Of a stretch of DNA of 64,000 nucleotides, positions 38,417 to 63,894 are shown one piece after another (positions within the stretch are counted from its first letter, which is position 1; each line of letters begins with the position of its first letter). The DNA lies in the IMG/VR virus record IMGVR_UViG_3300034101_003424, positions 28,767-92,766 of that record; one strand, given 5' to 3'. Origin of the DNA: a virus. A program made the translations under genes and the position numbers. The notes beneath the pieces were generated by a model that was not told where the DNA came from, made no database searches, and was given only the letters and a program-made list of their open reading frames with translations.

Positions 38417-38470
38417 TTTTAAATTTTTTAGTAAATAACATCTTCTTGACATCAAGAAGCTAATAAAAGT

Positions 38471-38562
38471 AGTCAGGACAGGATTCGAACCTGTATGAGA
38501 GATAACCATTCCTTTATTCCCTCTATCTGTTAATTAGCGTCTACCAATTCCGCCACCTGACT
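38471..38562 (-). ncRNA. tRNA-like element 1 (Leu-type D/T scaffold, no canonical anticodon arm)
   Basis: AGTCAGG/CCTGACT acceptor, TGGCGGAATTGGTAGACGC, ACAGGTTCGAATCCTGT. Confidence 0.7.
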
Positions 38563-50045: not shown

Positions 50046-50393
50046 TTAATTGGTTAATAAAAAGAACTTCACCGCCGAAAGTAAATCCGGGTAGGTCTTG
50101 TAGGTACCACCGTCAAATGTGTACCGTCTCTTCTTCGAGTTGTAGATTACTTCCCGTTCTTCCCCCCGGAACGACACGACCCTGTTGTTCCTTTGCGGTG
50201 CCACGAACATTAGCATGGTGTTGATGCCGTCTATTACATCTGTACTCCGGTCAACTATAACGTACTCGAACTCATCTTGATCAGGCAACAGGTTTTCAAA
50301 CAGAACAGTATTGTTTATCACGCAACTAATTTGTCTTTGACCATAAGATGAAAACACTCCTAAGAGTAAAAAGGTTGAAAGAATTAATCTCAT
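50046..50393 (-). CDS. Secreted hypothetical protein
   Basis: Bacteroidetes-style signal peptide (...SSYG-Q). Confidence 0.6.
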   Translation of the reverse strand: MRLILSTFLLLGVFSSYGQRQISCVINNTVLFENLLPDQDEFEYVIVDRSTDVIDGINTMLMFVAPQRNNRVVSFRGEEREVIYNSKKRRYTFDGGTYKTYPDLLSAVKFFLLTN

Positions 50394-50411
50394 ATAATTG
50401 ATTTGTTTGTT

Positions 50412-50568
50412 TTAAAAAGGAAGGTAGGTTAACCGGGGAGGTTAGGGCCCACCTTCTAAAATGCACCACTTAAACTTTGTTCTTTGTTCATAGCTTAATA
50501 AAAAGGAAGAAGGGATAATCGAGGAGACCAGAGCCCATCTTCTATATATACCACTTAAACTTTGCTCT
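50412..50568 (-). ncRNA. Two tandem candidate small RNAs (GTTTAAGTGGT + hairpin + U-run)
   Basis: Two imperfect ~75-bp copies in non-coding DNA; seed is the reverse complement of the early-leader box. Confidence 0.45.
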
Positions 50569-51585
50569 TTACACACCGGTCTGTTCCATTATCTTCCGGT
50601 GCGTTATATTGTCTATAGAATCATACCATTGTAAAAACCGTTTGATCCCTTCTCTATATTTCACTTTAGGTTCGTAGCCTAGACTTTTCAGCGGGGCTAC
50701 ATCAGATGCAGTAAAGTATACATCTCCATCCTGCATCCGTTCTAAATTCCGCAGGGCTCCAATACCAATCTCCTCCTCCAGGACATCAATGAAATCTAAT
50801 ATCTTAATGCTCTCATTGCTACCAACATTATATAACATGTACTTGACATCCGTTTCATTTTTAATCACAATATTAATCCCATCAATAATATCATCAATGT
50901 AAGTAAATTCTCTAAACATCTCTCCATGATTATAAATGTTAATGGGAATGTTATTATGAATGTTATATGTAAATTTATAAACCATCATATCCGGTCTACC
51001 CCATGGACCATACACTGTAAAGAATCTAAGCCCTGTAGTACGCATGTTGAACAAATGACTATATACATGTGCCGTCAATTCATTCATCTTCTTAGTCGCT
51101 GCATAAAAGGATACCGGCCCATCCGTTCTATCATCTGTACTAAATGCCATATCCATGTTATCCCCCATTCCATATACACTTGAACTAGATGCATACACTA
51201 AATGCTTTACATCATATTTCTTACATGCTTCTATAATGTTTAAGAATCCCTGAACGTTTGATCGGGCAAATAGATCCGGATCTTTGACGCTGGCTCTAAC
51301 TCCTGCCTGGCCCGCGAGATTTACAACTAGGTCAAACTTATGCAGAGAGAAAATGATATCTACCTTCTTCTTATCTGCTATGTCTAAGTTGTAGTAGCCA
51401 ATGTCTAAGTTGTAGTAGCCAATGCCTTTAGATATCGGCAGGGTATTAAATCTCATGCTATTTAATAACTGGGTGTCGCTTCCATCAAAGAAGTCCACAC
51501 CTATCACTTTGTGGCATTGGGTTAACATAGAGTGTGCTAGATGACTGCCAATGAATCCTGCGACCCCTGTTATTAGTACTTTCAT
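50569..51585 (-). CDS. NAD-dependent epimerase (UDP-glucuronate 4-epimerase-like)
   Basis: GVAGFIG, LAGQAGVR, ASSSSVYG, YAATKK, RFFTVYGPWGRPDM. Confidence 0.9.
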   Translation of the reverse strand: MKVLITGVAGFIGSHLAHSMLTQCHKVIGVDFFDGSDTQLLNSMRFNTLPISKGIGYYNLDIGYYNLDIADKKKVDIIFSLHKFDLVVNLAGQAGVRASVKDPDLFARSNVQGFLNIIEACKKYDVKHLVYASSSSVYGMGDNMDMAFSTDDRTDGPVSFYAATKKMNELTAHVYSHLFNMRTTGLRFFTVYGPWGRPDMMVYKFTYNIHNNIPINIYNHGEMFREFTYIDDIIDGINIVIKNETDVKYMLYNVGSNESIKILDFIDVLEEEIGIGALRNLERMQDGDVYFTASDVAPLKSLGYEPKVKYREGIKRFLQWYDSIDNITHRKIMEQTGV

Positions 51586-51586
51586 G

Positions 51587-51769
51587 TTAGTTATTATCTT
51601 TAAGAAACTTATACAATTCAAAGAACAGCAGGGAAGCCTCCTCCCGGGTTAGTACCATCTTTCCTTTCTGGTTAATGTAAGAGTGCACTACAAGAACCTT
51701 CTCATCAATGCCGGATCCTTCATGCACAGATACAACGGCCTGTTCGGTAAATTTTGTTTCGTAACTCAT
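51587..51769 (-). CDS. Hypothetical protein
   Basis: 60-aa ORF in operon. Confidence 0.5.
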   Translation of the reverse strand: MSYETKFTEQAVVSVHEGSGIDEKVLVVHSYINQKGKMVLTREEASLLFFELYKFLKDNN

Positions 51770-51784
51770 GTTATTTTTTTGTGG

Positions 51785-52057
51785 TCAGGACAGGAATGGT
51801 TTATACACTATGTCTCCCTTGTCTTCTATAGAGAGCATTACATACACATCATCCTCACACCATGAAGCCCAACCATCGAACCAATCGTCCTTTGTGTAGT
51901 TAGTCCACTTAGCAGATCTATCTCTATTTATTTCATTTAAGACATCTTCTATACCCCATGTCAATTCTTCATTACTGTAACCATCCAAGACAACGAATAC
52001 AAAATCATTGACATTTCTGCCTGGTAAGAAGTCATCTACATACTTGAATATTGCCAT
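51785..52057 (-). CDS. Hypothetical protein
   Basis: EINRDRS..W..Y...DW..GW motif. Confidence 0.6.
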   Translation of the reverse strand: MAIFKYVDDFLPGRNVNDFVFVVLDGYSNEELTWGIEDVLNEINRDRSAKWTNYTKDDWFDGWASWCEDDVYVMLSIEDKGDIVYKPFLS

Positions 52058-52091
52058 TTCTTTTTTAGTTTTTTGCGGTGTTTAACAATTA

Positions 52092-52715
52092 TTATTTTTT
52101 ACAAGAAGTTAGAATTTCATGGCACAACTCTTCTGGAATTCTACTTCTTTCATAAGAACCTTTCCTTCCTTGAGTTCCCGTCTTTGAACCTCTAGGAGCA
52201 GGAGTATGGTGACAGTTCTTATTACCATTTTTACATATTGGTCTAGGAACCCAATCTTCGGAGTTAGTCCATATATCTGTAGGCTTCGCTCTGTCGTCTC
52301 CGTACTGGCAATACCATACTGTATGTCTTTTAAATCCTTGCATCCATGGCATCTTTCTTAACATGCCTCTTGGATTCTCTATGAAGAAAACCATGTTAGG
52401 ATTAATCTCTAACCATTCTTTTATCAATGATATGAAATGTTGGTTAGTGATGTCACACTCACCTGCATACTTACTCTTCGGATCTACGCCATTTCTGTGA
52501 GTAGATATAGCAGCGATAGTATAGGTTGTACAATCCGGGGATGCCCAAATAATATCCGGAACAAACGGAACATCTTCTTTCTTTAGTTTTGAAATGTCTA
52601 TCTGCAAATCAATGCCATCAAAGTTTTCCCAATCAACAGAGAATACGTTCATGTCTAACTGAGCAGCAGCTTTGCCAATAGACTTACTGCCTGCGAATAA
52701 TTCTAATACGTTCAT
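52092..52715 (-). CDS. DNA cytosine-C5 methyltransferase-like protein
   Basis: LELFAG, WASPDC, IENP, YCQYG...KPTDIW, R..IP..L. Confidence 0.75.
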   Translation of the reverse strand: MNVLELFAGSKSIGKAAAQLDMNVFSVDWENFDGIDLQIDISKLKKEDVPFVPDIIWASPDCTTYTIAAISTHRNGVDPKSKYAGECDITNQHFISLIKEWLEINPNMVFFIENPRGMLRKMPWMQGFKRHTVWYCQYGDDRAKPTDIWTNSEDWVPRPICKNGNKNCHHTPAPRGSKTGTQGRKGSYERSRIPEELCHEILTSCKK

Positions 52716-52793
52716 TTTTTTTAGTTTAGTGGTAAAGAATATAGTGCAAAGATAAGGGGAATATTTAACATACCCAAACATTCCCCTAATTAT

Positions 52794-53189
52794 TTATTTA
52801 AAAAAATTAACCCATTCAAATATAGCGGTACACATTCCTATTGTATCCTTAGGTCTTGATATATACCACTCAAGTTTGTCATCATGTAACCAAGCATGGT
52901 AATACTCTAGTGATTTATCCGAAGACTTTCTGTGAATCATTTCCAAGTGATGCTCAAATCGGAAAAACTTTTTAGCAATCAATCCTTCTGTTTTGCTAAT
53001 GACTTCTACTAAGTACCCGTTGAAATGGTCTCTTGTTCCTCGGTCTTCCAAAGTTATTCTAACTACCTTATCATAGAAACTATTTTGAGCATAGATATTG
53101 AAGACTCCCTCTATATCGAACCATTCTATTCTACTGAATTCTGAACCCTTGAAAAATTCCTCATTAAATTTTTTGAAATACGTTTTCAT
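52794..53189 (-). CDS. Hypothetical early protein
   Basis: Follows promoter cassette. Confidence 0.65.
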   Translation of the reverse strand: MKTYFKKFNEEFFKGSEFSRIEWFDIEGVFNIYAQNSFYDKVVRITLEDRGTRDHFNGYLVEVISKTEGLIAKKFFRFEHHLEMIHRKSSDKSLEYYHAWLHDDKLEWYISRPKDTIGMCTAIFEWVNFFK

Positions 53190-53274
53190 TTTTTTGTTTT
53201 AAAGTGGTGAATAATATAGTGCAAAGATAGGGGTACCGGATTGAATATGCAATACCCCTATCGTTAATGTTTTG

Positions 53275-53475
53275 TTAATTGTGATAAACGTTCGTTCCCC
53301 TCCTGGCTTCCTTGCTAATACTGTAAGAGCCGAAGTAATGCATCTTAGCCTTAGAGAGCAATCGTATGGCCTCTTTCTTGTTGTAAGCAGTAACACAAGC
53401 GGCACCGCAATAAAAGCCATTAGAATCAATCCTTGTGCCATTTAAGGTAGCTATCCATTCCTTACTATTTCTCAT
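53275..53475 (-). CDS. Hypothetical early protein
   Basis: 66-aa ORF ending at cassette edge. Confidence 0.5.
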   Translation of the reverse strand: MRNSKEWIATLNGTRIDSNGFYCGAACVTAYNKKEAIRLLSKAKMHYFGSYSISKEARRGTNVYHN

Positions 53476-53482
53476 ATTACTT

Positions 53483-53749
53483 TTAGTTGTTTAAATGATT
53501 ATTCCAAATTAGCATGTCCTCTCTCAAGACATTATCTTCACTCGTATCGAACTCCTGGAATCCAAAATCATAATTCAACTTATGATTATCACATATCTCT
53601 AAAGTGGAATTAATTTTATCTAACTCCCACATTTCAAAATACGTATCACATTCGATTTCGTCAGGAGCAGATGTATCGTCACACCTTAAAAAGTATCCTA
53701 ACTTTAAGTTTAACTCGGACTCTTTTTTTATTATGAATTCTTTTAACAT
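53483..53749 (-). CDS. Hypothetical early protein
   Basis: 88-aa ORF. Confidence 0.55.
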   Translation of the reverse strand: MLKEFIIKKESELNLKLGYFLRCDDTSAPDEIECDTYFEMWELDKINSTLEICDNHKLNYDFGFQEFDTSEDNVLREDMLIWNNHLNN

Positions 53750-53750
53750 G

Positions 53751-54044
53751 TTACTTTTTATAGTTGTTTAAAAATTCGGTGTACACATGGTCATACAATA
53801 CTTCATCGCAATCATCTAAAATATCCATGTCAACATTCTCTACAATCTTTAAAGTCAAAGCATCTAAGTCATCTATGATTGACTCAAATGAACCCATCAT
53901 GTGAGTAAATTCTAGTACAGATCTAGCATCACGTGTTCCAAGTTTTTCCGATGTCTCATCATCCTGGTTCATGATTTCATTACAGATGTTTGATACATGA
54001 TAGAAAACAATCTTGAATAAATAAGAACTTCTGTCAATGTTCAT
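53751..54044 (-). CDS. Hypothetical early protein
   Basis: 97-aa ORF with leader box. Confidence 0.6.
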   Translation of the reverse strand: MNIDRSSYLFKIVFYHVSNICNEIMNQDDETSEKLGTRDARSVLEFTHMMGSFESIIDDLDALTLKIVENVDMDILDDCDEVLYDHVYTEFLNNYKK

Positions 54045-54070
54045 TTTTTTTTAGTTTAATGGTGAAGAAT

Positions 54071-54313
54071 TTAAAACAATATTATTCGAGCATCGCGTTC
54101 GGTTACATGGCCTACTTCTATTCCGATTTCAAGACCTCTCTCTAATGCATCTATAAGGTCTTGATAAGATTCACAGACATCGGTCTCGCTATCGTCATCA
54201 TATAGCGCATAGATAGAACCATCGAATAGACCCGACTGGTAAACTTCTTTAGCTTTGTCAGTAATCAATAGCCATACAAAGCCTTCAACAACTTTAATTT
54301 TTTGGTCGTACAT
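54071..54313 (-). CDS. Hypothetical early protein
   Basis: Start moved to MYDQK after cassette. Confidence 0.6.
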   Translation of the reverse strand: MYDQKIKVVEGFVWLLITDKAKEVYQSGLFDGSIYALYDDDSETDVCESYQDLIDALERGLEIGIEVGHVTERDARIILF

Positions 54314-54398
54314 TTTTTTTAAGTTTAGTGGTAAAGAATATAGTGCAAAGATAAGGGGGATATTTGAGAAAACCAAATCCCCCTGTGTTAATGATTCC

Positions 54399-54638
54399 TT
54401 AATTTTCTACTTCATAGAAGATTGTCTCATCTGGAAAGTACCACTCAATTGCATCAGTAATTGCTAACGAGATTTGTTCCATGGTTGCTGCATTGGTAAG
54501 AGCCGTATTTAAAATCTTTTGAGCATCTTCATCGCTAGCCTTCATGTAGTTAGCTTGAACATCCTGGATATGCCATAGGTTGTCAACAAAGTAACCATGG
54601 TCTCTTAATACCTTTTTTGCATTTTCTACTGCGTCCAT
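54399..54638 (-). CDS. Hypothetical early protein
   Basis: GYFVDNLW...DV motif; follows cassette. Confidence 0.65.
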   Translation of the reverse strand: MDAVENAKKVLRDHGYFVDNLWHIQDVQANYMKASDEDAQKILNTALTNAATMEQISLAITDAIEWYFPDETIFYEVEN

Positions 54639-54732
54639 TTTTTTTTTAGTTTAGTGGTAAAGAATATAGTGCAAAGATAAGGGTACCGGATCTAATATGC
54701 AATACCCCTATCGTTAATGTTTTGTTAATTTT

Positions 54733-54921
54733 TTACTCTTCGTGGATTGCCCTATAGATAGCTCTGCCGTCAAGAATTCGAGTCTTTGGTTTGAGGCCAT
54801 CATAGATTTCCCAGGCTTTAGCGAGAGAATTTGCGGTGCCAACTATTTGCTCACCCTTAAAGATGATATACTTCTCATCCTTCATTGGATCAGGTCTTTT
54901 TACTTCAGTTGCTTTGTTCAT
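54733..54921 (-). CDS. Hypothetical early protein
   Basis: Follows cassette. Confidence 0.6.
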   Translation of the reverse strand: MNKATEVKRPDPMKDEKYIIFKGEQIVGTANSLAKAWEIYDGLKPKTRILDGRAIYRAIHEE

Positions 54922-55007
54922 TTTTTAGTTTTAAAGCGGTGATTAATTATAGTGCAAAGATAAGGGTATTGGATATACTATGCAATACCCTTATCGTTAA
55001 TGTTATG

Positions 55008-55496
55008 TTAAAATGGTAAGTTAGTATTTAGAATGTTAAGACCCTCTTCTCTCTTCTGCTTGCATAAGTTTCTTAAGTATTTAGAACCTTGCTCAGTCTT
55101 TAACAAATCTTCTATTTTGGTACGCTTGCCGTTTACAATTACTTCAAACACCTTGTAGAAATTTTCTGTGCCAACACATACTCCTTTACTAAAATCCTTT
55201 TCTATCTTTTTCCAATTTTGTTTTTTTAACCAAGACTCAAATAGTTCGTCCACTACATTTTCTAAACTAGGACTACCTATATAATTTTCATTGTCAGGCA
55301 GAGTTTTACAATAATCCTCCATTTTGTCGTACAACTTTCCATGACCCGAACAATAACAGTCGGTATTTCCTCCATGTCCATCATTCCTACAGTACCCTAC
55401 TTTCTTTCCATCAAAGAAAATATCCGCTTCAAAGCAATTAGTCTCTTGTGAATTCCACTCAGAGAATTTAATACTCTTTAATTGAATCCTATCCAT
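55008..55496 (-). CDS. Hypothetical early protein
   Basis: SQETNCFEA...NDGHGG motif; follows cassette. Confidence 0.7.
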   Translation of the reverse strand: MDRIQLKSIKFSEWNSQETNCFEADIFFDGKKVGYCRNDGHGGNTDCYCSGHGKLYDKMEDYCKTLPDNENYIGSPSLENVVDELFESWLKKQNWKKIEKDFSKGVCVGTENFYKVFEVIVNGKRTKIEDLLKTEQGSKYLRNLCKQKREEGLNILNTNLPF

Positions 55497-55587
55497 TTTT
55501 TTTTAGTTTATTGGTGAATAATATAATGCAAAGATAAGGGTATCGGATATACTATGCAATACCCTTATCGTTAATGTTATGTTAAAA

Positions 55588-56298
55588 TTACAAAGACCAT
55601 TGACTTGCCATAGCTTTAGCCATGCCTATGAATGTCTTACTTCTCATAGTTCTTCTTTCTTCCGATGACTTAGCATTTGAAAGAGCATCAGCATACCACT
55701 TAGGATGACTTTTACCGCTTTTGAAATACACTCTCTCACCCTCGCTTACTATATCTGTAGGCTCTAATTTAGGTAGATTTTTTAGCCACAAACAAGTTGT
55801 CTTTCTTGCCTCGTCGCCAAACATAAACGGTTGCACAATTTGGTCAGGTTTTCTGTAAGCAGATGATATGACACCAACAGGGTTTTCAATTGCAATCTTA
55901 TCAATAGGCGCATTAGCTATCCTTATGAAAAACTCAATAGCCTTTTCTCTATCTGCTGCTCTATCCGGATGTTTAGGATGTGGTCTTCTAGATTCAACCG
56001 GTAAGTCCTTATCTTCCGGATGGTAGTACCATTGCGCACCACTCACGGCCAAATAAGTACAAGGCGGATGTGCAATCATCATATCCCAATCTGCATTTAT
56101 ATTAACCGTTTCTCCATTTTGAAGAACACCGCCTTGATTCTTGATAATCTCAAAAACGTCATTGTTAAAATGCCATTCGGGATGTCCCCCACTACAAGGA
56201 AGAAGGTCGCAGCTAAATGCATTGTGTCCTAATAATCTCAATTCTCTAGTTAAAGCTTGGCTCTCTTCACAAGCTACTAACACATTTAATTTTTTCAT
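55588..56298 (-). CDS. DNA cytosine methyltransferase-like protein
   Basis: VLVACEES, SCDL, AHPPCT, IENP, QPFMFG, RSKTF.G.A.AMA.QW. Confidence 0.75.
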   Translation of the reverse strand: MKKLNVLVACEESQALTRELRLLGHNAFSCDLLPCSGGHPEWHFNNDVFEIIKNQGGVLQNGETVNINADWDMMIAHPPCTYLAVSGAQWYYHPEDKDLPVESRRPHPKHPDRAADREKAIEFFIRIANAPIDKIAIENPVGVISSAYRKPDQIVQPFMFGDEARKTTCLWLKNLPKLEPTDIVSEGERVYFKSGKSHPKWYADALSNAKSSEERRTMRSKTFIGMAKAMASQWSL

Positions 56299-56382
56299 TT
56301 TTTAGTTTATGTGGTAAATAATATAGTGCAAAGATAAGGGGGATATTTGAGAAAGTCAATACCCCCCTATGTTAATGATTCC

Positions 56383-56952
56383 TTAATTTTCCGCGGGGTT
56401 ATTCTCTCTATATATCCTAATCATTTCTTCCATATCTTCCTCAGTAACGTAGGGATAATCCTCCTTAATCTGCTCCTCACTTTCAATAAATCCATCTTCA
56501 ACATTCGTAATAAAATCATAGAAGAAATTCTCAGGGACTTCTTTATACTGGTATTCATTATAAGTCATATCCTCCCTACTTACTTCATCACCATTTACAT
56601 CAATCTCCACAATACCTGCAAAGTCACACCCCCCTTCCGAATATTCAATCCGTCCTTCCACTCCGTACTTCTTACATACTTTCTTAACAAATTCCGTACA
56701 TGGACTCCAAGCCGTTTCACAATTAAGGTAATCACATTCTTTCATGCTATGTCTAATGTCATCGTCCATCAGTACACTCCATTTAGTGCCGAACTCATCA
56801 CACCAATCATTGTAATCATATTCTTCTTTATAATCAGTCAATGCAGTAAATATACAATGACCGTCCTCAATACTGGCAACATCTTTTCTCAATGTTTCCA
56901 TAGCTTTTTCCGTACCTTCAAATGAGATACAATTAGAACACCAATTTGGCAT
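56383..56952 (-). CDS. YubB/DUF1281-like ferredoxin-fold protein
   Basis: MPNWC.N, W....GTKW, TAWSP, Y.E.G.DFAG. Confidence 0.7.
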   Translation of the reverse strand: MPNWCSNCISFEGTEKAMETLRKDVASIEDGHCIFTALTDYKEEYDYNDWCDEFGTKWSVLMDDDIRHSMKECDYLNCETAWSPCTEFVKKVCKKYGVEGRIEYSEGGCDFAGIVEIDVNGDEVSREDMTYNEYQYKEVPENFFYDFITNVEDGFIESEEQIKEDYPYVTEEDMEEMIRIYRENNPAEN

Positions 56953-57237
56953 AGTAGTTAAAATTTAATGTGGTTAATAATATGTCGCAAAGATAATAAC
57001 ATTCCATCTAATATCCTAATCCTAAAATGTTAAAGTCATGTTAAAATGAAATGTAGTAAAATGTAACTCATACCATATCTCATCTATTCCCCATCATCTA
57101 ATTGACATTGCAAAGATACATCCCATTTCTCTATTATCCTAATTTCAAATGTTAAAAAGATCTTAAAGAAATGTTAAAGTCATGTTAACGGATCCCCCTC
57201 ACATTACTGGCCATGCTAGAAAAGGGAAGCGGGAAAA

Positions 57238-57272
57238 TTTACTCAGGCAAGGCTTTGCCTTGCCTGAGTAAA
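57238..57272. repeat. GC-rich palindrome (copies also at 60161-60200, 61961-62000, 63791-63828)
   Basis: tttactcaggcaaggc-ttt-gccttgcctgagtaaa. Confidence 0.85.
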
Positions 57273-57283
57273 ATTCACTAGCA

Positions 57284-57343
57284 ACAAAAAAACTCCCGAC
57301 ATCTACTGCCGGGAGCTAAACCACTTAAACATCTATTAACCTT
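57284..57343 (-). ncRNA. Candidate 3'-trailer small RNA (GTTTAAGTGGT + terminator)
   Basis: Seed at 57320-57330, then CTCCCGGCA/TGTCGGGAG hairpin and T7. Confidence 0.45.
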
Positions 57344-57453
57344 TGGAAGTCAGGGTAGGAATCGAACCTACATGATAAGTAGTATAGTTGATTAAGCGAA
57401 AACGTACTTACTTATCTATTCACTTCTAGCGTCTACCATTTCGCCACCTGACT
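57344..57453 (-). ncRNA. tRNA-like element 6 with encoded CCA
   Basis: AGTCAGG/CCTGACT-T-CCA, TGGCGAAATGGTAGACGC, GTAGGTTCGATTCCTAC; long stem replaces the anticodon arm. Confidence 0.7.
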
Positions 57454-57463
57454 TATCATTTAC

Positions 57464-57679
57464 TTATTGATTATCTCCTTTTTTGTACGAGTGAAATATA
57501 TTACTAGATGGGTCATAATTAGTCTCGTTCTTATAAAAGAAAGCTGAGTTAATTATAGCGCTAATAAGTTCCTCTTCGGTCAAGTACACAAGTTCTGATG
57601 AATCAAACTCGTCTGAAAGTAATTCTTCTAAAGCCATTACTAGATCTTTTCTAGAAAGATTTTTTAGTTCTACTAACAT
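57464..57679 (-). CDS. Hypothetical early protein
   Basis: Follows cassette. Confidence 0.6.
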   Translation of the reverse strand: MLVELKNLSRKDLVMALEELLSDEFDSSELVYLTEEELISAIINSAFFYKNETNYDPSSNIFHSYKKGDNQ

Positions 57680-57757
57680 TTTTTTATTTTAAAGTGGTGA
57701 TTAATTTTTTACAAAGATGAGGGGTATTGGATATACTATGCAATACCCCTATCATTA

Positions 57758-57979
57758 CTATTTACACTTCTTACTTTTAGGTAAACGATTCACAGTTGCT
57801 AATCTCGCGTTAATCTTTTCAATAATTTCCTCATAGCTTTCTTTGACCTCAAATCCTCCGTTGTTATTCCATCCTACAACGTATGCTCCTTTTGCTGTAG
57901 ATACGACTCGTTGCAAAAGACTTACATTACCAATAAATTTATCACCGTTACTTGAACTAGTTAACTCAATAAAAAACAT
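57758..57979 (-). CDS. FlbD-like small protein
   Basis: FIELT...N...EVKESYEEI..KI pattern. Confidence 0.5.
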   Translation of the reverse strand: MFFIELTSSSNGDKFIGNVSLLQRVVSTAKGAYVVGWNNNGGFEVKESYEEIIEKINARLATVNRLPKSKKCK

Positions 57980-58066
57980 AATTTTAAAATTTAAAGTGGT
58001 TATTAATATGATGCAAAGATAAGGGTATCGGATATAATATGCAATACCCTTATCGTTAATGTTTTG

Positions 58067-58627
58067 TTAAGAATAATAGAGTAGTGTTCTCTCTTGACTT
58101 CTTCGTTCTGTGATGTCCTTTATATCCCTTTCTAAAATATGAAGCTTGATTACATCTTGCCCTAATTCAATGACTTGAGAAACAGATTCTAAAGGATATG
58201 TAATAAAAGACCCATGTTCCAACCAACCTTTACCTATCTGAATAGACCCTGTAAAATTGCAAGATAACCTTCTTCCACAACTTTCAAAAGGAGCGGCAAA
58301 AGATATTTTTATATACCCTCTACCATGACCAAATTTTATAAATTCACTAATCCCGTTAGAATATAAAGTGATTTCATAATTTCCTCCACGAGCTAACCAA
58401 GAATACAGATTGTTGTAACCGTTAACTTCAAAATAGGGTAAATCTAATGCATCCAAAACATTGCATAGTTCACCATAATAACTAAGCACAAGTTGTTTGA
58501 ATCTTTTAACAACTTCTTGATTGTGAGAATCTATATCTCTTACATTCTGATTTGACTCTTGAATCAGAGTTGACAAATTAAATCCAGACAAATCAATATT
58601 GCCTTTGGTAGCTTTTAGTTCAAACAT
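58067..58627 (-). CDS. Hypothetical early protein
   Basis: Follows cassette. Confidence 0.65.
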   Translation of the reverse strand: MFELKATKGNIDLSGFNLSTLIQESNQNVRDIDSHNQEVVKRFKQLVLSYYGELCNVLDALDLPYFEVNGYNNLYSWLARGGNYEITLYSNGISEFIKFGHGRGYIKISFAAPFESCGRRLSCNFTGSIQIGKGWLEHGSFITYPLESVSQVIELGQDVIKLHILERDIKDITERRSQERTLLYYS

Positions 58628-58731
58628 GATAAATTAATTTAGTGGTTTAAAATATGTTGCAAAGATAAGGGCATCGGATATAATATGCAACACCCTTATC
58701 GTTAATGTTTTGTTAATTTTCCGCGGGGATC

Positions 58732-59142
58732 TTAAACTTTATATCCTCCCATTCTTGCAGCATCCGGAATCAAATCAATACACAATTTATAATCAACCGA
58801 AACAATGTAAGAAACATCTCTATCATCTATATCTTCTCCCAGGAAAGTCCAATTAGGAGCAACCTTAGGATTATACTTAATTTTAAAATCAGACTCTTTA
58901 ACAAAATCAGAATGTCTAATCTCTAAATCATTACATAAAATCCATGCACATACAACCTTAGTACTTTCTCCATTGAAGATCTTAGTAGCCATTTTCTTAT
59001 TATTCCTTAACGTGCATTCTCTCATGATTAATTGAACATCACATGGATTGTAATATGTGACAACTCCATCACTACCAATGACTCTCCATTTCATATAATT
59101 TTCTCCACGTTGTAAAGAGAATCTAACTTTAATCCTTTTCAT
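58732..59142 (-). CDS. Hypothetical early protein
   Basis: KVRF.L.RGENYMKW...VCAW..C...YNP...P.W. Confidence 0.65.
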   Translation of the reverse strand: MKRIKVRFSLQRGENYMKWRVIGSDGVVTYYNPCDVQLIMRECTLRNNKKMATKIFNGESTKVVCAWILCNDLEIRHSDFVKESDFKIKYNPKVAPNWTFLGEDIDDRDVSYIVSVDYKLCIDLIPDAARMGGYKV

Positions 59143-59228
59143 GTTTTTCAATTTAAGTGGTTATTAATATGATGCAAAGATAGGGGGGATTTTTGAGAAA
59201 GTCAATCCCCCCATGTGTTAATGTTATG

Positions 59229-59936
59229 TTAATGGATTACATTGTAAATATTCTTAGCTTTCTTTCCACCTTCGCACAACCCACATTTAGCGCAGCTTAC
59301 TTGCTTCTCCTTTGCTATGGTTGGCGCTGATGGACAAAGTATAGCACCTTCAACCTCACTGGCATTGTAAGACCTAAAACCAAGGCCTTCGGCTAATTTT
59401 ACATCAAAGATATTGTGCGTACTTGCCATTAGGTATTTTGCATATTGCTTATTCTCTGGTTTGTGCCATTGGTGAGTATAGCCCGAAACCTTGCCAACCA
59501 AAGGCCTTATTTGTTCTAGCAATTCAAAAGGTAATAAGGTAGGCTCCCCATACGTTCCCATGCGAGCAAAGGATATCTTAACCTTTTTTGTGACGTTCGT
59601 AATTTGTTCCATTACGCCTTCCGTTCCTTCCGGAATTAATCCGTTATCCAAACGCTTTTTTAAGGCTTTTAATTTTGCTATTAATCCCCAAGCTAAAGAT
59701 CCGTTCGCATGGGTATAGCAACCGCCTGACTTTCCACCGTTTGCATTATAAGAGAACTTACAATCAAAGCATACCTTAGAGTCATTTTTTAGGGTAGCCT
59801 CATTAACCTGGTCAATAGAAAAATGATAGGTTTGTAGGATAATTTCGCCTTTTTGAGCGAGCTTAGGAGTGGCGCTAGGCTTGATATCTATGCAATGGAT
59901 AACGTCACCTAATCTAAAATTAATTTGCTTAAGCAT
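59229..59936 (-). CDS. Cys-rich phage protein (Gp88/radical-SAM-related, tentative)
   Basis: C..C...CY, R.G.YGEP, GYTHQW, CP...C..CGLC. Confidence 0.55.
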   Translation of the reverse strand: MLKQINFRLGDVIHCIDIKPSATPKLAQKGEIILQTYHFSIDQVNEATLKNDSKVCFDCKFSYNANGGKSGGCYTHANGSLAWGLIAKLKALKKRLDNGLIPEGTEGVMEQITNVTKKVKISFARMGTYGEPTLLPFELLEQIRPLVGKVSGYTHQWHKPENKQYAKYLMASTHNIFDVKLAEGLGFRSYNASEVEGAILCPSAPTIAKEKQVSCAKCGLCEGGKKAKNIYNVIH

Positions 59937-59956
59937 AACTTGTGTATTTAAGTGGT

Positions 59957-60245
59957 AAAGAATATGTCGCAAAGATAAAGAGTATTTTTCTATTTTCCAA
60001 ATTTAAGACAAACTTTTTTTAAATTAATTTTTGCCTCTCTAATTACCCTCTCTCTTTATAACACTGCAAAGATAAGCATAAAAACAATACCTAGTAGTTA
60101 ATAGAGTGTTAATGTTTTCTCTATTATAGTTAAGGAAAAGTTAAGATCCGCGCCTGCAAAAATTACTCAGGCAGGGCTTTGCCCTGCCCTGAGCGAAATT
60201 CACTGACATGAAAGATCCCTCCCGGAGTTAACCAGGAGGGTTTTT
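59957..60245. repeat. Long intergenic repeat (copies 61757-62050, partial 63690-63880, diverged 56980-57320)
   Basis: Near-identical blocks with two promoters, phased GTTAA, palindrome and second hairpin. Confidence 0.85.
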
Positions 60246-60247
60246 AT

Positions 60248-60724
60248 TTACGAGTGCATATTAACTAAGACAACAAAGGTAAGTTCGCCATCACAACCTA
60301 AGTCAGTAATGCCAGGCTCATCAATATACCCATCATAAAATGTATCTGACCATATATCAATTTTAGTAGGGTCTGAAAGAGATGATATTTCAGCTTGCTC
60401 TTTGCAATATTTGGAAGCAAGCGTCCAATCAAAAGACTTAACTAATACAGTACTTCCTAAATTAGACACCTTGAGGAATGCTTGCTTATAGTAATCATTT
60501 ACCTCTGTTAAGAAATCAAATCTATTTGGGTCATTGAGTAATTCATCCTTAGTTATCCATTTCTCATCAAAAGATTCAGAGAATGATTTGTCTTCTTTGC
60601 AATGAGAACCCATGATAGTAAACCAATTATTCTCTGTACCCCAATCAAATAGATAGTCTTCAACAATGCCAATAGCGTCGGAATGAGAATCAGCTTTTGT
60701 TCTAATTAAATGCAGATTGTGCAT
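60248..60724 (-). CDS. Hypothetical early protein
   Basis: 158-aa ORF with leader box. Confidence 0.65.
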   Translation of the reverse strand: MHNLHLIRTKADSHSDAIGIVEDYLFDWGTENNWFTIMGSHCKEDKSFSESFDEKWITKDELLNDPNRFDFLTEVNDYYKQAFLKVSNLGSTVLVKSFDWTLASKYCKEQAEISSLSDPTKIDIWSDTFYDGYIDEPGITDLGCDGELTFVVLVNMHS

Positions 60725-60753
60725 AATTTTAAAATTTTAAGTGGTGATTAATA

Positions 60754-60918
60754 TTACTTACTTTTTAATTCCAAATACCTATCCTCCGGAACAAAGTAAG
60801 CAGAAGAGCCTATATTAGCTAAATGTTCCATGTCGTTCATTAATATACATTCATCAAACCATTCCACATCCATTAACATTTGACTTTCAGGCCAACAAAC
60901 TAAAACATATTTTTCCAT
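60754..60918 (-). CDS. Small phage protein
   Basis: Start moved to MEKYVLVCWPESQ...GSSAYFVP. Confidence 0.65.
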   Translation of the reverse strand: MEKYVLVCWPESQMLMDVEWFDECILMNDMEHLANIGSSAYFVPEDRYLELKSK

Positions 60919-61006
60919 TGTTAAAATATTTAAAGTGGTTAATAATCTTATGCAAAAATAGGGGGAACATTTTACATTTCCAAACATTCCCCCACATTTT
61001 TTTAAA

Positions 61007-61732
61007 TTAATTTGCAAACTCCATAGAAAGATTGGCTAACCTCTCATTGATAATTGCAGTCTTGTTAGGGTCTTTCAAGGCAGAATACTTTCTCCTACCT
61101 GCAAACCCATTAATCAATTTTTCTTGAAGACGATTCTGAATAGCCCAAAGCGTATTATCATCATCTGCGAACCTTTCTGACGCAAGTAATACCTTAGCCT
61201 CATTTTCTGTAAAGGCTCTCTTAAAACGCAAAGCAGCAGCCTTCATGGCAAATTCAATAGCCTTTTCTTCGGTCAAGTTTACAGACATTTGCTGCAATAC
61301 GTATTCCTCAAGTTTAGGTAACAAATCAAAAAAGTTGGCTACGATTTCACCCGATATAACTTTCTCTGAAATATCCATAGCTTTCTTTCCGAAATGCCTT
61401 ACTTTGAAAATCTTAGATTCAAATCTTGAGTCAGAGACCGTTAGTCCGTTTGAGCATACTAATCTGAATATTCCCATTGAACATTCAAACCCAACCGTTC
61501 CGTCAAACGAATTGCGGATAACAACTTCGGGATATAAAGTTTCACCTTTCAAGATTAATTCCTTATTGTACCTCATTCTAATAAGGTGCGCGGAACTTTT
61601 AGCGCCTTTCTTTTTAGTCTGAAAGCCTGAAAGATGAAAGCCATTAGACTGAAGGTCATTAATCAATTTTTGTGAGCTGATAGCTACATACTTCGCGCTT
61701 AGATTTGCGCTTTTTACTTCTGAAAGAATCAT
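61007..61732 (-). CDS. DUF932/DUF945-like protein
   Basis: H..R, NSFDG, FRLVCSNGL, LW...N..QE.LI.G. Confidence 0.75.
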   Translation of the reverse strand: MILSEVKSANLSAKYVAISSQKLINDLQSNGFHLSGFQTKKKGAKSSAHLIRMRYNKELILKGETLYPEVVIRNSFDGTVGFECSMGIFRLVCSNGLTVSDSRFESKIFKVRHFGKKAMDISEKVISGEIVANFFDLLPKLEEYVLQQMSVNLTEEKAIEFAMKAAALRFKRAFTENEAKVLLASERFADDDNTLWAIQNRLQEKLINGFAGRRKYSALKDPNKTAIINERLANLSMEFAN

Positions 61733-62064
61733 AGTTTTTAAAAATTTAAAGTGGTTAAGAATCTGATGCAAAGATAAAGAGTAATTTTCTATTTTCCAAA
61801 TTTAAGGCAAACTTTTTTTAAATTAATTTTCTGCCTTTCTAATTACCCTCTCTCTTTATAACACTGCAAAGATAAGCATAAAAACAATACATAGTAGTTA
61901 AAGGAGTGTTAATGTTTTCCCTATTATAGTTAAGGAAATGTTAAGATTCGGATCCACGAAATTTACTCAGGCAGGGCTTTGCCCTGCCCTGAGCGAAATT
62001 CACTGGCATGACAAATCCCCGACGGACACTAAATCCGACGGGGCAAAAAACAAGTCATGTATTC

Positions 62065-62292
62065 TTATCTGAGCTTTGCTTTGAAGTACTTAAAAACTTC
62101 GGGGATATGTTTCTTATAGTATGGTTGATTATCCTTAAGCCACTCTTTTAGTTCTTTGTCGTCCTTAAAAGGTGCTGTCCAGGAATGACCGTTAAATGAG
62201 ATACAATTAGAAACAATTCTATTAAACGTGGGTTCTAGTTCATTGATAAAATCTTGAACAGTCCAACCTTCCCAAATATGCTTATTATTCAT
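62065..62292 (-). CDS. Hypothetical early protein
   Basis: IWEGWTVQDFI...NQPYYKKHIPEV; start moved to MNNKH. Confidence 0.65.
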   Translation of the reverse strand: MNNKHIWEGWTVQDFINELEPTFNRIVSNCISFNGHSWTAPFKDDKELKEWLKDNQPYYKKHIPEVFKYFKAKLR

Positions 62293-62387
62293 TTTACTTT
62301 TTTTAAGTTTTTCGCGGGGATTAATATGTTTCAAAGATAGGGAGAACATTTTACATTTCCAAACATTCTCCCATCTTTTTTTAAATT

Positions 62388-62813
62388 CTATCCATATACA
62401 ATTTCATTAAGAAATACAGTCTGCAAAACAACATCCCCAGTAACTGCATCATCATTTTCATTTATCATATCTAACAGATGATCTAAAGGAACATTCTTAA
62501 CTCTCTCGTGAACGTCAGCGAGGTTTATGGAATTGAAGAAGTTAATATCTTCTAACTCGCTGCCATCTTCTTCAATTGTCAGGAAATTCCCGTCCCTGAG
62601 AATCTGCATCAATATGTCTTCGTAGCATATAGCTTGAAACTCTGAGGAATCACTAGTCAAGTTAGCCTTGGCATTTTTGTAGTGTTCATGAGCGTATCCT
62701 ACGGACAGGCCGTATCCTGAACACATATAATCCAATGAATTACATAAAGCATTGAAAAAAATCTCTTCGCTCAATTCATTTGTAAGCGAAATTTTTAAAC
62801 CTTCTTTGTTCAT
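62388..62813 (-). CDS. Hypothetical early protein
   Basis: DDA..GD..LQ...NEIVYG C-terminus. Confidence 0.65.
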   Translation of the reverse strand: MNKEGLKISLTNELSEEIFFNALCNSLDYMCSGYGLSVGYAHEHYKNAKANLTSDSSEFQAICYEDILMQILRDGNFLTIEEDGSELEDINFFNSINLADVHERVKNVPLDHLLDMINENDDAVTGDVVLQTVFLNEIVYG

Positions 62814-62855
62814 TTTTTAAGTATTTAAGTGGTGATTAAGATATTGAAATTCTAC

Positions 62856-63083
62856 TTATCTGTTTTCCATAATTTGACTAATCATAATATCCATTGCTTC
62901 CTTATGCGTGAGAATGTTTCCAAACTCTAACATACTTTCTTCATCATAATATACTCCATTTCTATCATTCCATTTCAGCCAACTAATTAGGCTTTCCCTT
63001 GTCCATTTGCTTAACTCCTCTCTTAATTGCAACTCATTCATAGAATCATCTAAAATTCCATAAAAATTATGTCTTGTTTCCAT
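62856..63083 (-). CDS. Hypothetical early protein
   Basis: WL.WNDRNGVY.D; start moved to METR. Confidence 0.6.
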   Translation of the reverse strand: METRHNFYGILDDSMNELQLREELSKWTRESLISWLKWNDRNGVYYDEESMLEFGNILTHKEAMDIMISQIMENR

Positions 63084-63165
63084 AGATACTTTATTTAAGT
63101 GGTGATTAATATAAGGCAAAGATAAGGGGAATATTTAACATATCCAAACATTCCCCTCACATTTT

Positions 63166-63660
63166 TTACGCTAATTGAAAAATTTCTTTTGCTTTTAAAG
63201 ACTGAATACAATCAAGCTCAATCATTCTCAATTCAAAGGTATTAGATTCCGTTTCCGGTTCTATTTCCTGCATTCTCTTAACTAAGGCTAATCGGTTCCG
63301 TTCTGTCGTTGCGTCCGGAAATCCCCATTTAACCTGCTTTCCTGGAATTAAGAACACGCGTAGAAATCTCTTAAGGTTCTTTGGATTGTCGAATAAATGC
63401 CCTTTGCTATCCAACGCTCTAGCCCAACCCGGATTAATAGCCACGCCTTCGCCTTCTCTATTCTCTAATCTTGTTTTGTAGGTGCTACCCAACTGACAAG
63501 TACGGAAAGTAATACAACGCACTTCTTCGCGTGTAATACCATTGGCAGCCAACCAACCATAGGTTAATTTTTTTGCTACCTTATCTGCTGATGACTCATA
63601 CTGGATAGCGGCAAACGTGTTTTTAGGCGATAAGCCCTCGATGAAATTTAGAATACTCAT
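63166..63660 (-). CDS. Hypothetical early protein
   Basis: 164-aa ORF after cassette. Confidence 0.6.
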   Translation of the reverse strand: MSILNFIEGLSPKNTFAAIQYESSADKVAKKLTYGWLAANGITREEVRCITFRTCQLGSTYKTRLENREGEGVAINPGWARALDSKGHLFDNPKNLKRFLRVFLIPGKQVKWGFPDATTERNRLALVKRMQEIEPETESNTFELRMIELDCIQSLKAKEIFQLA

Positions 63661-63894
63661 AAGACTTGTTGATTAAGTAGTTTAAAATTATGATACAAAG
63701 ATAAGCATAAAAACAACACATAGTAGTTAAGGTAGTGTTAATGTTTTCCCTATTTTAGTTAAAGAAATGTTAAGATCCGGATCCGCAAAATTTACTCAGG
63801 CAGGGCTTTGCCCTGCCTTAGCGAAATTCACTGGCATGAAAGATCCCCGACGGACACTAAATCCGACGGGGCTAAAAAACAAGTTATTATATTT

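Follow-up and report, generated by a model that had tools for sequence, protein, structure and literature searches.

The roughly 20 early genes of this uncultivated phage carry a short box just ahead of their start codons, and the exact complement of the box occurs on the same strand, beside intrinsic terminators, at two sites conserved among the relatives of the phage. This exact complementarity, together with the two conserved terminator-linked sites, suggests RNA–RNA control of early translation. In the reading that we favour, at a probability of about 0.4, the 3′-terminal RNAs of two early transcription units would base-pair with the early leaders and so keep ribosomes from loading; we regard the anti-box system as a promising candidate, short of an established mechanism. 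Somewhat more doubtful is the bolder proposal that this phage clade evolved an RNA switch for its early gene set, in which two or three terminator-linked anti-box RNAs (from an operon 3′ UTR and from the trailer of a tRNA-shaped RNA, freed by tRNA-processing enzymes) would titrate the approximately 20 leaders bearing the lineage-specific box and thereby jointly shut early translation.

In the window, i.e. the whole stretch of 64,000 nucleotides that was analysed, the exact box ACCACTTAAA has eight matches (five sense and three inverted), compared with a mean of 0.34 in 100 shuffles, none of which reached eight. The whole 92.7 kb record contains no additional exact copies in either orientation. 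The sense copies lie on the − strand at 59152, 59947 and 60736, as a preceding sequence-only reading had reported, and at 62824 and 63094, where its positions were off by one; the inverted copies are matches on the + strand at 50465, 50550 and 57320. The degenerate form ACCAC[AT]?T{1,3}AAA has 16 copies on the − strand between 52.7 and 63.1 kb, each with an ATG 6–13 nt downstream, and on the + strand only the three inverted copies; a search with this pattern found no box at the late + strand genes. Looser variants (ACCAATAAAC, ACCGCTTTAAA, ACCATTAAAC and ACTACTTAAT) stand ahead of four further early genes. In all, about 19–20 early start codons have a box variant upstream, and the observation of the box and its inverted copies is borne out more strongly than when it was first made. 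The region and the perfect copies are as follows.

52725–63672, − strand: early region with about 20 genes and a box variant (one to three T, ATAAA or ATTAAA) 6–13 nt before each ATG
63094–63103, − strand: perfect sense box, ATG at 63083, 10 nt on
62824–62833, − strand: perfect sense box, 10 nt to the ATG at 62813, without an upstream −7/−33 promoter
60736–60745, − strand: perfect sense box, 11 nt to the ATG at 60724, without an upstream promoter
59947–59956, − strand: perfect sense box, 10 nt to the ATG at 59936
59152–59161, − strand: perfect sense box, ATG at 59142

The early promoters are of the Bacteroidota type (TTTG / TAnnTTTG). About 20 copies of (T/A)TTG-N~20-TATCTTTGC occur upstream of early genes, in agreement with the primary-sigma promoter of that phylum, whose consensus has TTTG near −33, TAnnTTTG near −7 and a transcription start 4–5 nt past the −7 element (PMC6847099). 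Most of the early genes lie behind a TTTG-N~20-TATCTTTGC promoter, with the box beginning 12 nt past it (in most promoter-linked copies, 13 nt counted from the G of the −7 element), and the spacing rule for the start would put the box at approximately +10 to +19 of the mRNA. The distance from box to ATG has its mode at 10 nt, with or without an upstream promoter, and the same holds after terminator hairpins and between cistrons. This peak, being irrespective of the promoter, makes the box an element of the translation start region, and a leader element tied to the start codon is the interpretation that the data support. The box ACCACUUAAA contains no GGAGG-like stretch, i.e. no complement of the CCUCC anti-Shine-Dalgarno sequence of 16S rRNA; Shine-Dalgarno sequences are generally absent from Bacteroidota mRNAs (PMC6847099). 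The candidate regulator and its targets have the same promoter type, a point of timing that counts against RNA control.

The complementary 11-mer GTTTAAGTGGT occurs three times on the − strand against an expectation of 0.04. As the sequence-only reading had found, all three copies lie in non-coding DNA, ahead of a hairpin and a T-run. They belong to two sites, A and B.

50569–51621, − strand: gene for an NAD-dependent epimerase/dehydratase (PF01370, E = 5e-52), whose 3′ UTR is site A
50500–50568, − strand: anti-box unit A1, with the seed at 50550–50560, a hairpin at 50506–50542 and a T-run at 50500–50504
50414–50490, − strand: anti-box unit A2, with the seed at 50465–50475, a two-part hairpin with a C-rich apical loop at 50420–50456 and a T-run at 50414–50418
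57344–57452, − strand: tRNA-like element adjoining the 5′ side of unit B; acceptor, D-arm and T-arm conserved, interior hypervariable, CCA end here
57286–57343, − strand: anti-box unit B, with the trailer at 57331–57343, the seed at 57320–57330, a terminator hairpin at 57293–57315 and a T-run at 57286–57292
57241–57285, − strand: spacer downstream of unit B, containing the CTAGTGAATTT motif as well as a second long hairpin (about 57241–57268, CTCAGGCAAGGC..GCCTTGCCTGAG)

Unit A1 begins directly past the epimerase stop codon, and 1-nt linker indels among relatives indicate that it is non-coding. Unit A2 is a tandem copy of A1 restricted to this genome; the two are identical at 15/15 positions of CAAAGTTTAAGTGGT and at 37 of the remaining 52 (71%). 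Both sites have the structure of an intrinsic terminator, with a hairpin of 9+5 pairs (3 compensatory) followed by T5 at site A and, at site B, a hairpin of 11 pairs that a scan places at 57317–57291, again followed by the T-run. Unit B, the CTAGTGAATTT motif and the second hairpin are parts of a recurrent intergenic module. Upstream of the seeds no promoter of their own is visible, so a discrete small RNA would need processing. For unit B, such processing was proposed on the grounds that the unit trails a CCA-ending tRNA-like element. The arms of this element are conserved and the CCA is present here, but the encoded CCA is missing in one relative (G006), ARAGORN called no tRNA at 57344–57452, and the score against the Rfam tRNA model is 14 bits, the threshold being 29. 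By these features the element is tRNA-like but non-canonical, and the putative liberation of unit B by tRNA processing would depend on it.

The seed is invariant in 10 site-A copies (from nine records) and in 12 site-B records, counts that are not independent, since the relatives are fairly close (site alignments average 89% identity) and the leader modules are paralogues. Both syntenic sites, on the 3′ side of the epimerase gene and after the tRNA-like element, are present in all box-bearing relatives. On the early-sense strand of seven records, each intergenic anti-box-like match is an exact TTTAAGTGGT with a hairpin and a T-run at one of two syntenic sites per genome, and no intergenic copy lies elsewhere on that strand. 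Around the invariant seed, linkers and hairpin loops differ between relatives, compensatory changes occur in the stems, and the neighbouring protein is only 62–83% identical; a non-coding seed just ahead of its parent terminator, conserved more strictly than its surroundings, is what would be expected of a base-pairing small RNA derived from a 3′ UTR or a trailer. The inverted copies are also far more strictly conserved than the sense copies, which vary from one to three T and include ATCAC, ATTAC and ACCAT variants, mostly C-to-U changes; the box of the gene with the ATG at 59142 has the two-T (2T) form in 6/6 relatives having that gene. A single regulator RNA serving many targets would be expected to combine, as here, a strict seed with sloppy targets, and the C-to-U variants would be tolerated, since they face G in the seed. 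Seed and box do not covary, as the seed never varies.

Counted by orientation and context, the inverted boxes are not scattered, and no box-bearing genome lacks the seed, both as the sequence-only reading had expected. Distant relatives with the same promoter type have neither box nor anti-box. Protein-guided scans of viral contigs and metagenomes for differently boxed relatives yielded only members of the same clade (62–93% identity) or distant phages (≤37%), the latter with neither element. In 0.5 Mb of related loci, a covariance model built on the site A unit picked up no additional homologue, megablast of the 50–58 kb region against deposited phages gave no match, and bacterial genomes searched for promoter plus box returned three chance matches and no host or prophage. 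Rfam searches of both sites at permissive thresholds produced chance-level matches only. Hairpin loops presenting TTTAGTG, which had been put forward as extra anti-boxes, do exist at 62027–62033 and 63855–63861, but we rejected them in this role, the sequence being TCCAGTG, TTCAGTG or TTTAGTA in the relatives G003 and G004.

The pairing check gave mean predicted duplex energies of −12 to −13 kcal/mol for the 20 early leaders and −6 to −7 kcal/mol (sd 2.3) for 78 control leaders, i.e. a predicted advantage of about 2.5 sd for all 20. The A/U-rich duplex of 10–11 bp is itself worth only about −11 kcal/mol, and a genome-wide duplex scan is non-discriminating, with long imperfect duplexes elsewhere outscoring the 10-bp box pairing. 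The accessibility of the seed in predicted folds is moderate (unpaired probability 0.3–0.8).

A scheme can be drawn from the motif, its placement and conservation, the terminator structures and this pairing potential. The box, ACCAC-T(1–3)-AAA, would act as an RNA element that precedes the AUG by some 10–20 nt and lies close to the 5′ end of early mRNAs, themselves presumably transcribed from host-type Bacteroidota promoters. RNAs presenting the exact complement GUUUAAGUGGU, mostly unpaired and immediately 5′ of an intrinsic terminator, would be formed at the ends of two early transcription units, with the site A RNA being the 3′ UTR of the epimerase operon (duplicated in this genome) and the site B RNA the trailer of the tRNA-like element. 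Either within the mRNA or after processing, these 3′-end RNAs may pair in trans with early leaders inside the 30S footprint and lower ribosome loading, and the early genes would as a set be repressed with a delay. In this scheme we infer that the sites are transcribed through, that small RNAs are released, that pairing takes place in vivo and that its effect is negative. For the RNA switch on the early regulon, as the sequence-only reading had conceived it, the leader placement, the two syntenic invariant sites and the predicted pairing speak in favour, while the seeds without a visible promoter and the unconserved TTTAGTG loops speak against.

The anti-box might instead pair with box RNA only to control termination, with no free small RNA acting on translation, either by resetting a leader-dependent antitermination state or by using site A as a regulated attenuator of the genes that follow it without a promoter (50393–49621). 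The geometry is suggestive, as the anti-box always lies 4–9 nt ahead of the terminator hairpin and site A separates the epimerase stop from an ATG at 50393, 20 nt past the T-run of unit A2 with no intervening promoter; control of read-through would also be useful, given that nearly all early promoters contain a terminator-like hairpin. We nevertheless consider such a role unlikely. The units carrying the anti-box have 1T or 3T leaders of their own, not the perfect 2T complement, which disfavours the cis 5′–3′ pairing named earlier as an alternative and favours pairing in trans; moreover, the duplex stops short of the terminator stem, and promoters follow site B, so read-through is unneeded there.

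Another conceivable explanation, also named earlier as an alternative and to which we likewise assign a low probability, is that a protein of the phage or the host, such as an early-gene repressor or a roadblock, binds the box as double-stranded DNA in either orientation, the inverted copies being extra sites by terminators. An identical, conserved DNA 10-mer in both orientations would suit it, as would the constant spacing of 13 nt between the G of the −7 element and most promoter-linked boxes. However, the approximately 146 leader copies have a single orientation and a single distance to the ATG, even where there is no promoter, the 1–3 bp variation in ACCAC–AAA spacing of the sense copies is awkward for a rigid DNA site, and the much stricter conservation of the inverted copies also argues against it; no candidate binding protein was identified.

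It is improbable that the extended box (ATTAAT-CACCAC-TTTAAA) is a phage-specific promoter near the ATG and that the inverted copies, as + strand promoters, drive RNA antisense to the 3′ end of the epimerase gene and to the tRNA-like element. Boxes do precede genes directly behind terminator hairpins without a host-type promoter, and the extended 1T box matches 14/17 positions of the T3 promoter. Nevertheless, the box contains a variable number of T, the inverted copies have not retained its A/T-rich upstream half and are not followed by a + strand ORF, and a promoter would have no reason to keep so tight a distance of 10 nt to the ATG; PF00940 (T7-like RNA polymerase) was not found in G000, G002, G004, G005 and G006, a weak argument given that these genomes are all incomplete (one is 82% complete) and control genomes are equally silent. 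Hardly more convincing is a fortuitous complementarity of inverted copies retained for their terminator context or a tRNA-like trailer function, since, for all that the relatives are close and the flanks upstream of the seed are kept as well (AAGAGCAAA at site A, AAAGGTTAATA at site B), the two sites share nothing but one 11-mer, exactly complementary to the commonest leader motif, and box and anti-box are present or absent together.

Pairing of 3′-end RNAs with early leaders would have parallels in known systems. Enterobacterial 3′ UTR small RNAs such as CpxQ and SroC have the seed just ahead of the parent terminator and are processed, without a promoter of their own, and the tRNA trailer RNA 3′ETS-leuZ (bioRxiv 10.1101/2021.04.25.441314) reportedly acts by base pairing, sponging small RNAs. 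The seed of the phage units likewise adjoins the terminator of the parent transcript, and their release would also occur by processing. Those RNAs, however, are host-encoded and Hfq-dependent, while here the promoters are of the Bacteroidota type, the tRNA-like element is non-canonical, and the candidate targets are early leaders of the phage itself; to our knowledge, the classical Hfq route is lacking in Bacteroidota, a further point against RNA control. The C4 antisense RNA of phages P1 and P7, which is cut from a longer transcript by RNase P, is also phage-encoded and uses short complementary stretches to occlude a ribosome-binding site of phage mRNA (PMC5320573), as our candidate might. 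C4, however, has a three-stem fold with pairing sequences in loops and serves one target operon in a temperate immunity circuit, in contrast to a linear seed before a terminator and about 20 candidate target leaders here; with the Rfam C4 model, nothing in the window reached the gathering threshold, 50250–50700 had no match at E ≤ 10, and 57150–57520 gave none either. A short motif common to many early translation starts and a co-ordinated post-transcriptional early shut-off recall RegB and RegA of T4 (reviewed in PMC3014915), but T4 relies on protein effectors, an endoribonuclease and a translational repressor, whereas the candidate effector here is a complementary RNA, and no RegB/RegA-like protein was identified. 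The band C and D RNAs of T4 and sRNA2 of PAK_P3 are small stable RNAs of virulent phages that lie in tRNA clusters and are co-transcribed with the phage tRNAs, with a function unknown or only predicted (PMC4933390), for which no common leader box has been described as target. PAK_P3 sRNA2 was rejected as a precedent, since it carries a T-loop-like 11-mer, not an early-leader complement (PMC4933390).

If confirmed, the system would be compact and defined by sequence, with one 11-nt seed and about 20 leaders, and it would show a phage timing its early gene set post-transcriptionally and provide a function for RNAs riding on tRNA-like elements. We know of hardly any documented early-gene regulation by phage-encoded RNAs in virulent phages, and of essentially none in Bacteroidota phages. 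Should the box be a protein or ribosome site instead, it would still be a new start-region element in a phylum with poorly understood initiation signals. The hosts of Bacteroidota phages translate without Shine-Dalgarno pairing. In its extended form the box may resemble the 3′ tail of 16S rRNA (AUCACC) and the epsilon enhancer of T7 gene 10, likenesses on which the reading above does not rely.

The leader motif singled out by the sequence-only reading, a box of the form ACCAC-T(1-3)-AAA (1T, 2T or 3T by the number of T residues, 2T being the perfect form), does recur ahead of early genes: a degenerate search found 16 boxes on the - strand between 52.7 and 63.1 kb, every one of them 6-13 nt 5' of an ATG, and its only + strand matches were three inverted copies. 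Looser variants stand ahead of further early genes (n = 4). The exact sequence ACCACTTAAA occurs eight times against 0.34 expected (five copies on the - strand, three on the +), a count reached in 0 of 100 shuffles, and no further exact copies exist in the whole record. The parent IMG/VR record measures 92.7 kb and is estimated by CheckV to be 51% complete. The window takes in its last 64 kb on the right; genes there lie on the - strand from ~30 kb onward, the early region extends past the contig end, and the late genes, on the + strand, are without the box.

Early genes are preceded by some 20 copies of (T/A)TTG-N~20-TATCTTTGC, which correspond to the Bacteroidota primary-sigma consensus TTTG/TAnnTTTG, with the box starting 12 nt downstream of TATCTTTGC. 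Transcription in Flavobacterium johnsoniae starts 4-5 nt past the -7 element (PMC6847099), and by analogy with this rule the box would occupy roughly positions +10 to +19 of a ~30-nt leader. Distant relatives with the same promoter type are devoid of the box and have leaders ~10 nt shorter. The box is more than a promoter part: among 146 boxes scored in seven related records (at most one mismatch in ACCAC), a -7 element precedes 92 and is absent upstream of 54, the latter including some directly behind GC-rich terminator hairpins and some between cistrons, and the AAA-to-ATG distance peaks at 10 nt in both classes, so that the box belongs to the translation start region.

The three exact reverse complements of the box (anti-boxes, or seeds) are likewise present on the - strand, the 11-mer GTTTAAGTGGT occurring there three times against 0.04 expected. 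They lie in units A1, A2 and B of the following list.

50500-50568, - strand: unit A1, site A, 3' UTR of an epimerase gene
50414-50490, - strand: unit A2, site A, same 3' UTR
57286-57343, - strand: unit B, site B, trailer of a tRNA-like element
57344-57452, - strand: the tRNA-like element, adjoining unit B upstream

Pattern and protein-guided searches brought up one and the same clade, both in IMG/VR and in JGI metagenomes, extending the box and anti-box beyond this genome. In each record spanning the region, sense boxes are numerous, and inverted copies stand at exactly two syntenic places, one after the stop codon of the NAD-dependent epimerase gene and the other after the tRNA-like element; the tandem pair at site A is restricted to the genome studied here, and these copies are the only intergenic anti-box-like matches on the early-sense strand. 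The 11-mer is unchanged in 10 site-A copies and 12 site-B records, is the sole sequence common to the two sites, and neighbours a protein with just 62-83% identity between relatives. The tandem units are identical at 15/15 positions over CAAAGTTTAAGTGGT and at 71% in the remainder. Hairpin loops and linker 3' of the seed vary between relatives, and one-base linker indels mean that no reading frame is conserved. Compensatory changes affect three pairs of the site A hairpin (9+5 pairs, C-rich apical loop) and one pair at site B. The TTTAGTG hairpin loops proposed as additional seeds proved not to be conserved, and the collections searched contain no intermediate relatives.

The best single explanation, to which we assign a probability of roughly 0.4, is that candidate anti-box RNAs repress in trans by pairing with the early leaders; some RNA-RNA role of box and anti-box, of whatever kind, is a slightly better than even prospect. 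In a partly circular calculation, predicted duplexes of the three seeds with 20 early start regions average -12 to -13 kcal/mol, and those with controls (78 start regions) -6 to -7 kcal/mol (s.d. ~2.3). Good pairing is still predicted for the 1T and 3T variants, which form a bulge. On the weak side, seed accessibility in predicted folds is only moderate, and long imperfect matches dominate a genome-wide duplex scan. The commonest box-core variants (ATCAC, ATTAC, ACCAT) are C-to-U changes, tolerated opposite seed G; the leader modules being paralogues, this pattern is no more than suggestive of pairing. The leaders of the units ending at sites A and B are 1T or 3T in all relatives, and perfect 2T boxes occur in other units upstream and, in relatives, also left beyond the window contig's end, which argues against simple 5'-3' self-pairing. 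Since the seeds have no host-type promoter upstream, a small RNA could arise only by processing of the mRNA or the tRNA-like precursor.

The anti-box at sites A and B is possibly an attenuator or antitermination reset, and site A, only 20 nt ahead of a gene without its own promoter, would suit the former. The extended box, which resembles the T3 promoter, might alternatively represent a phage-specific promoter; however, its upstream half is not retained at the inverted copies. A search of five incomplete records for a T7-like polymerase gene drew a blank, but it was silent in its controls too. A DNA-binding protein site is a further possibility, though a less likely one: the box orientation is uniform, the T-run varies in length and the ATG distance is fixed even without a promoter, all of which fit it poorly.

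The layout of the units resembles that of 3' UTR-derived or trailer-derived base-pairing RNAs. In function they would be akin to the C4 RNA of P1/P7, which is excised from a larger precursor RNA and occludes a ribosome-binding site (PMC5320573). The units are not members of the C4 family. T4 RegA/RegB offer a parallel in one motif common to early start regions, the T4 effectors being proteins.

The tRNA-like element before site B is not a canonical tRNA according to ARAGORN and Rfam, and in one relative (G006) it is missing the CCA end. Six tRNA-shaped elements (T-arms at 38491, 38647, 39215, 39523, 41404 and 57368, - strand) have in common the T-arm GGTTCGA(A/T/G)TCC and, in most, a GTCAGG acceptor. 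The copy at 57.4 kb has an interior hypervariable in sequence and length between relatives; downstream of that at 41.4 kb come a sense box (ACCATTAAA, or ACCACTAAA in the relative G001) and an ATG, with no anti-box. The stretch 38470-38562 (-) gives an Rfam tRNA match (38.5 bits, 93 nt) and no ARAGORN call. An Api92-like gene (PF18406) lies immediately downstream of site B, and two early DNA methyltransferase-like genes (phrog_757; 55588-56298 and 52092-52715, -) stand among the box-bearing genes.

A further intergenic module recurs at four places.

~63810-63875: recurrent intergenic module
61985-62045: recurrent intergenic module
60165-60240: recurrent intergenic module
57241-57317: recurrent intergenic module

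It runs from a variable GC hairpin through CCAGTGAATTTCG to a second, long hairpin that is conserved (CTCAGGGCAGGGC-aaa-GCCCTGCCTGAG, AATTT/AAATT flanks), and has many copies in every relative, with the second hairpin covarying. At most early promoters, including 63122-63160 and 52755-52787, an inverted repeat (e.g. GGGGAAT..ATTCCCC) encloses the promoter with the -33 TTTG in its loop and the -7 TATCTTTG as its U-rich tail, so that the terminator closing one unit merges with the promoter that opens the following unit. Tandem promoters ~98 nt apart occur at 61776-61874 and 59977-60074, the upstream one lacking a box; through it, the DUF932 gene and the 235-aa gene would acquire an additional leader that is rich in purines (AGTGTTATAAAGAGAGAGGG...) and contains a weak hairpin with an A/U loop. 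Past the point corresponding to the window contig's end, the early region goes on in the related record G002 (72.5-80 kb, L054), where the promoters form a second subfamily (TTGTAT..TTTTGAG) and the boxes are of the type ATCACTTAAA / ATTACTTAAA; in some gene pairs there, the second gene comes directly behind a GCCCCGCGG..CGCGGGGC hairpin and then a box.
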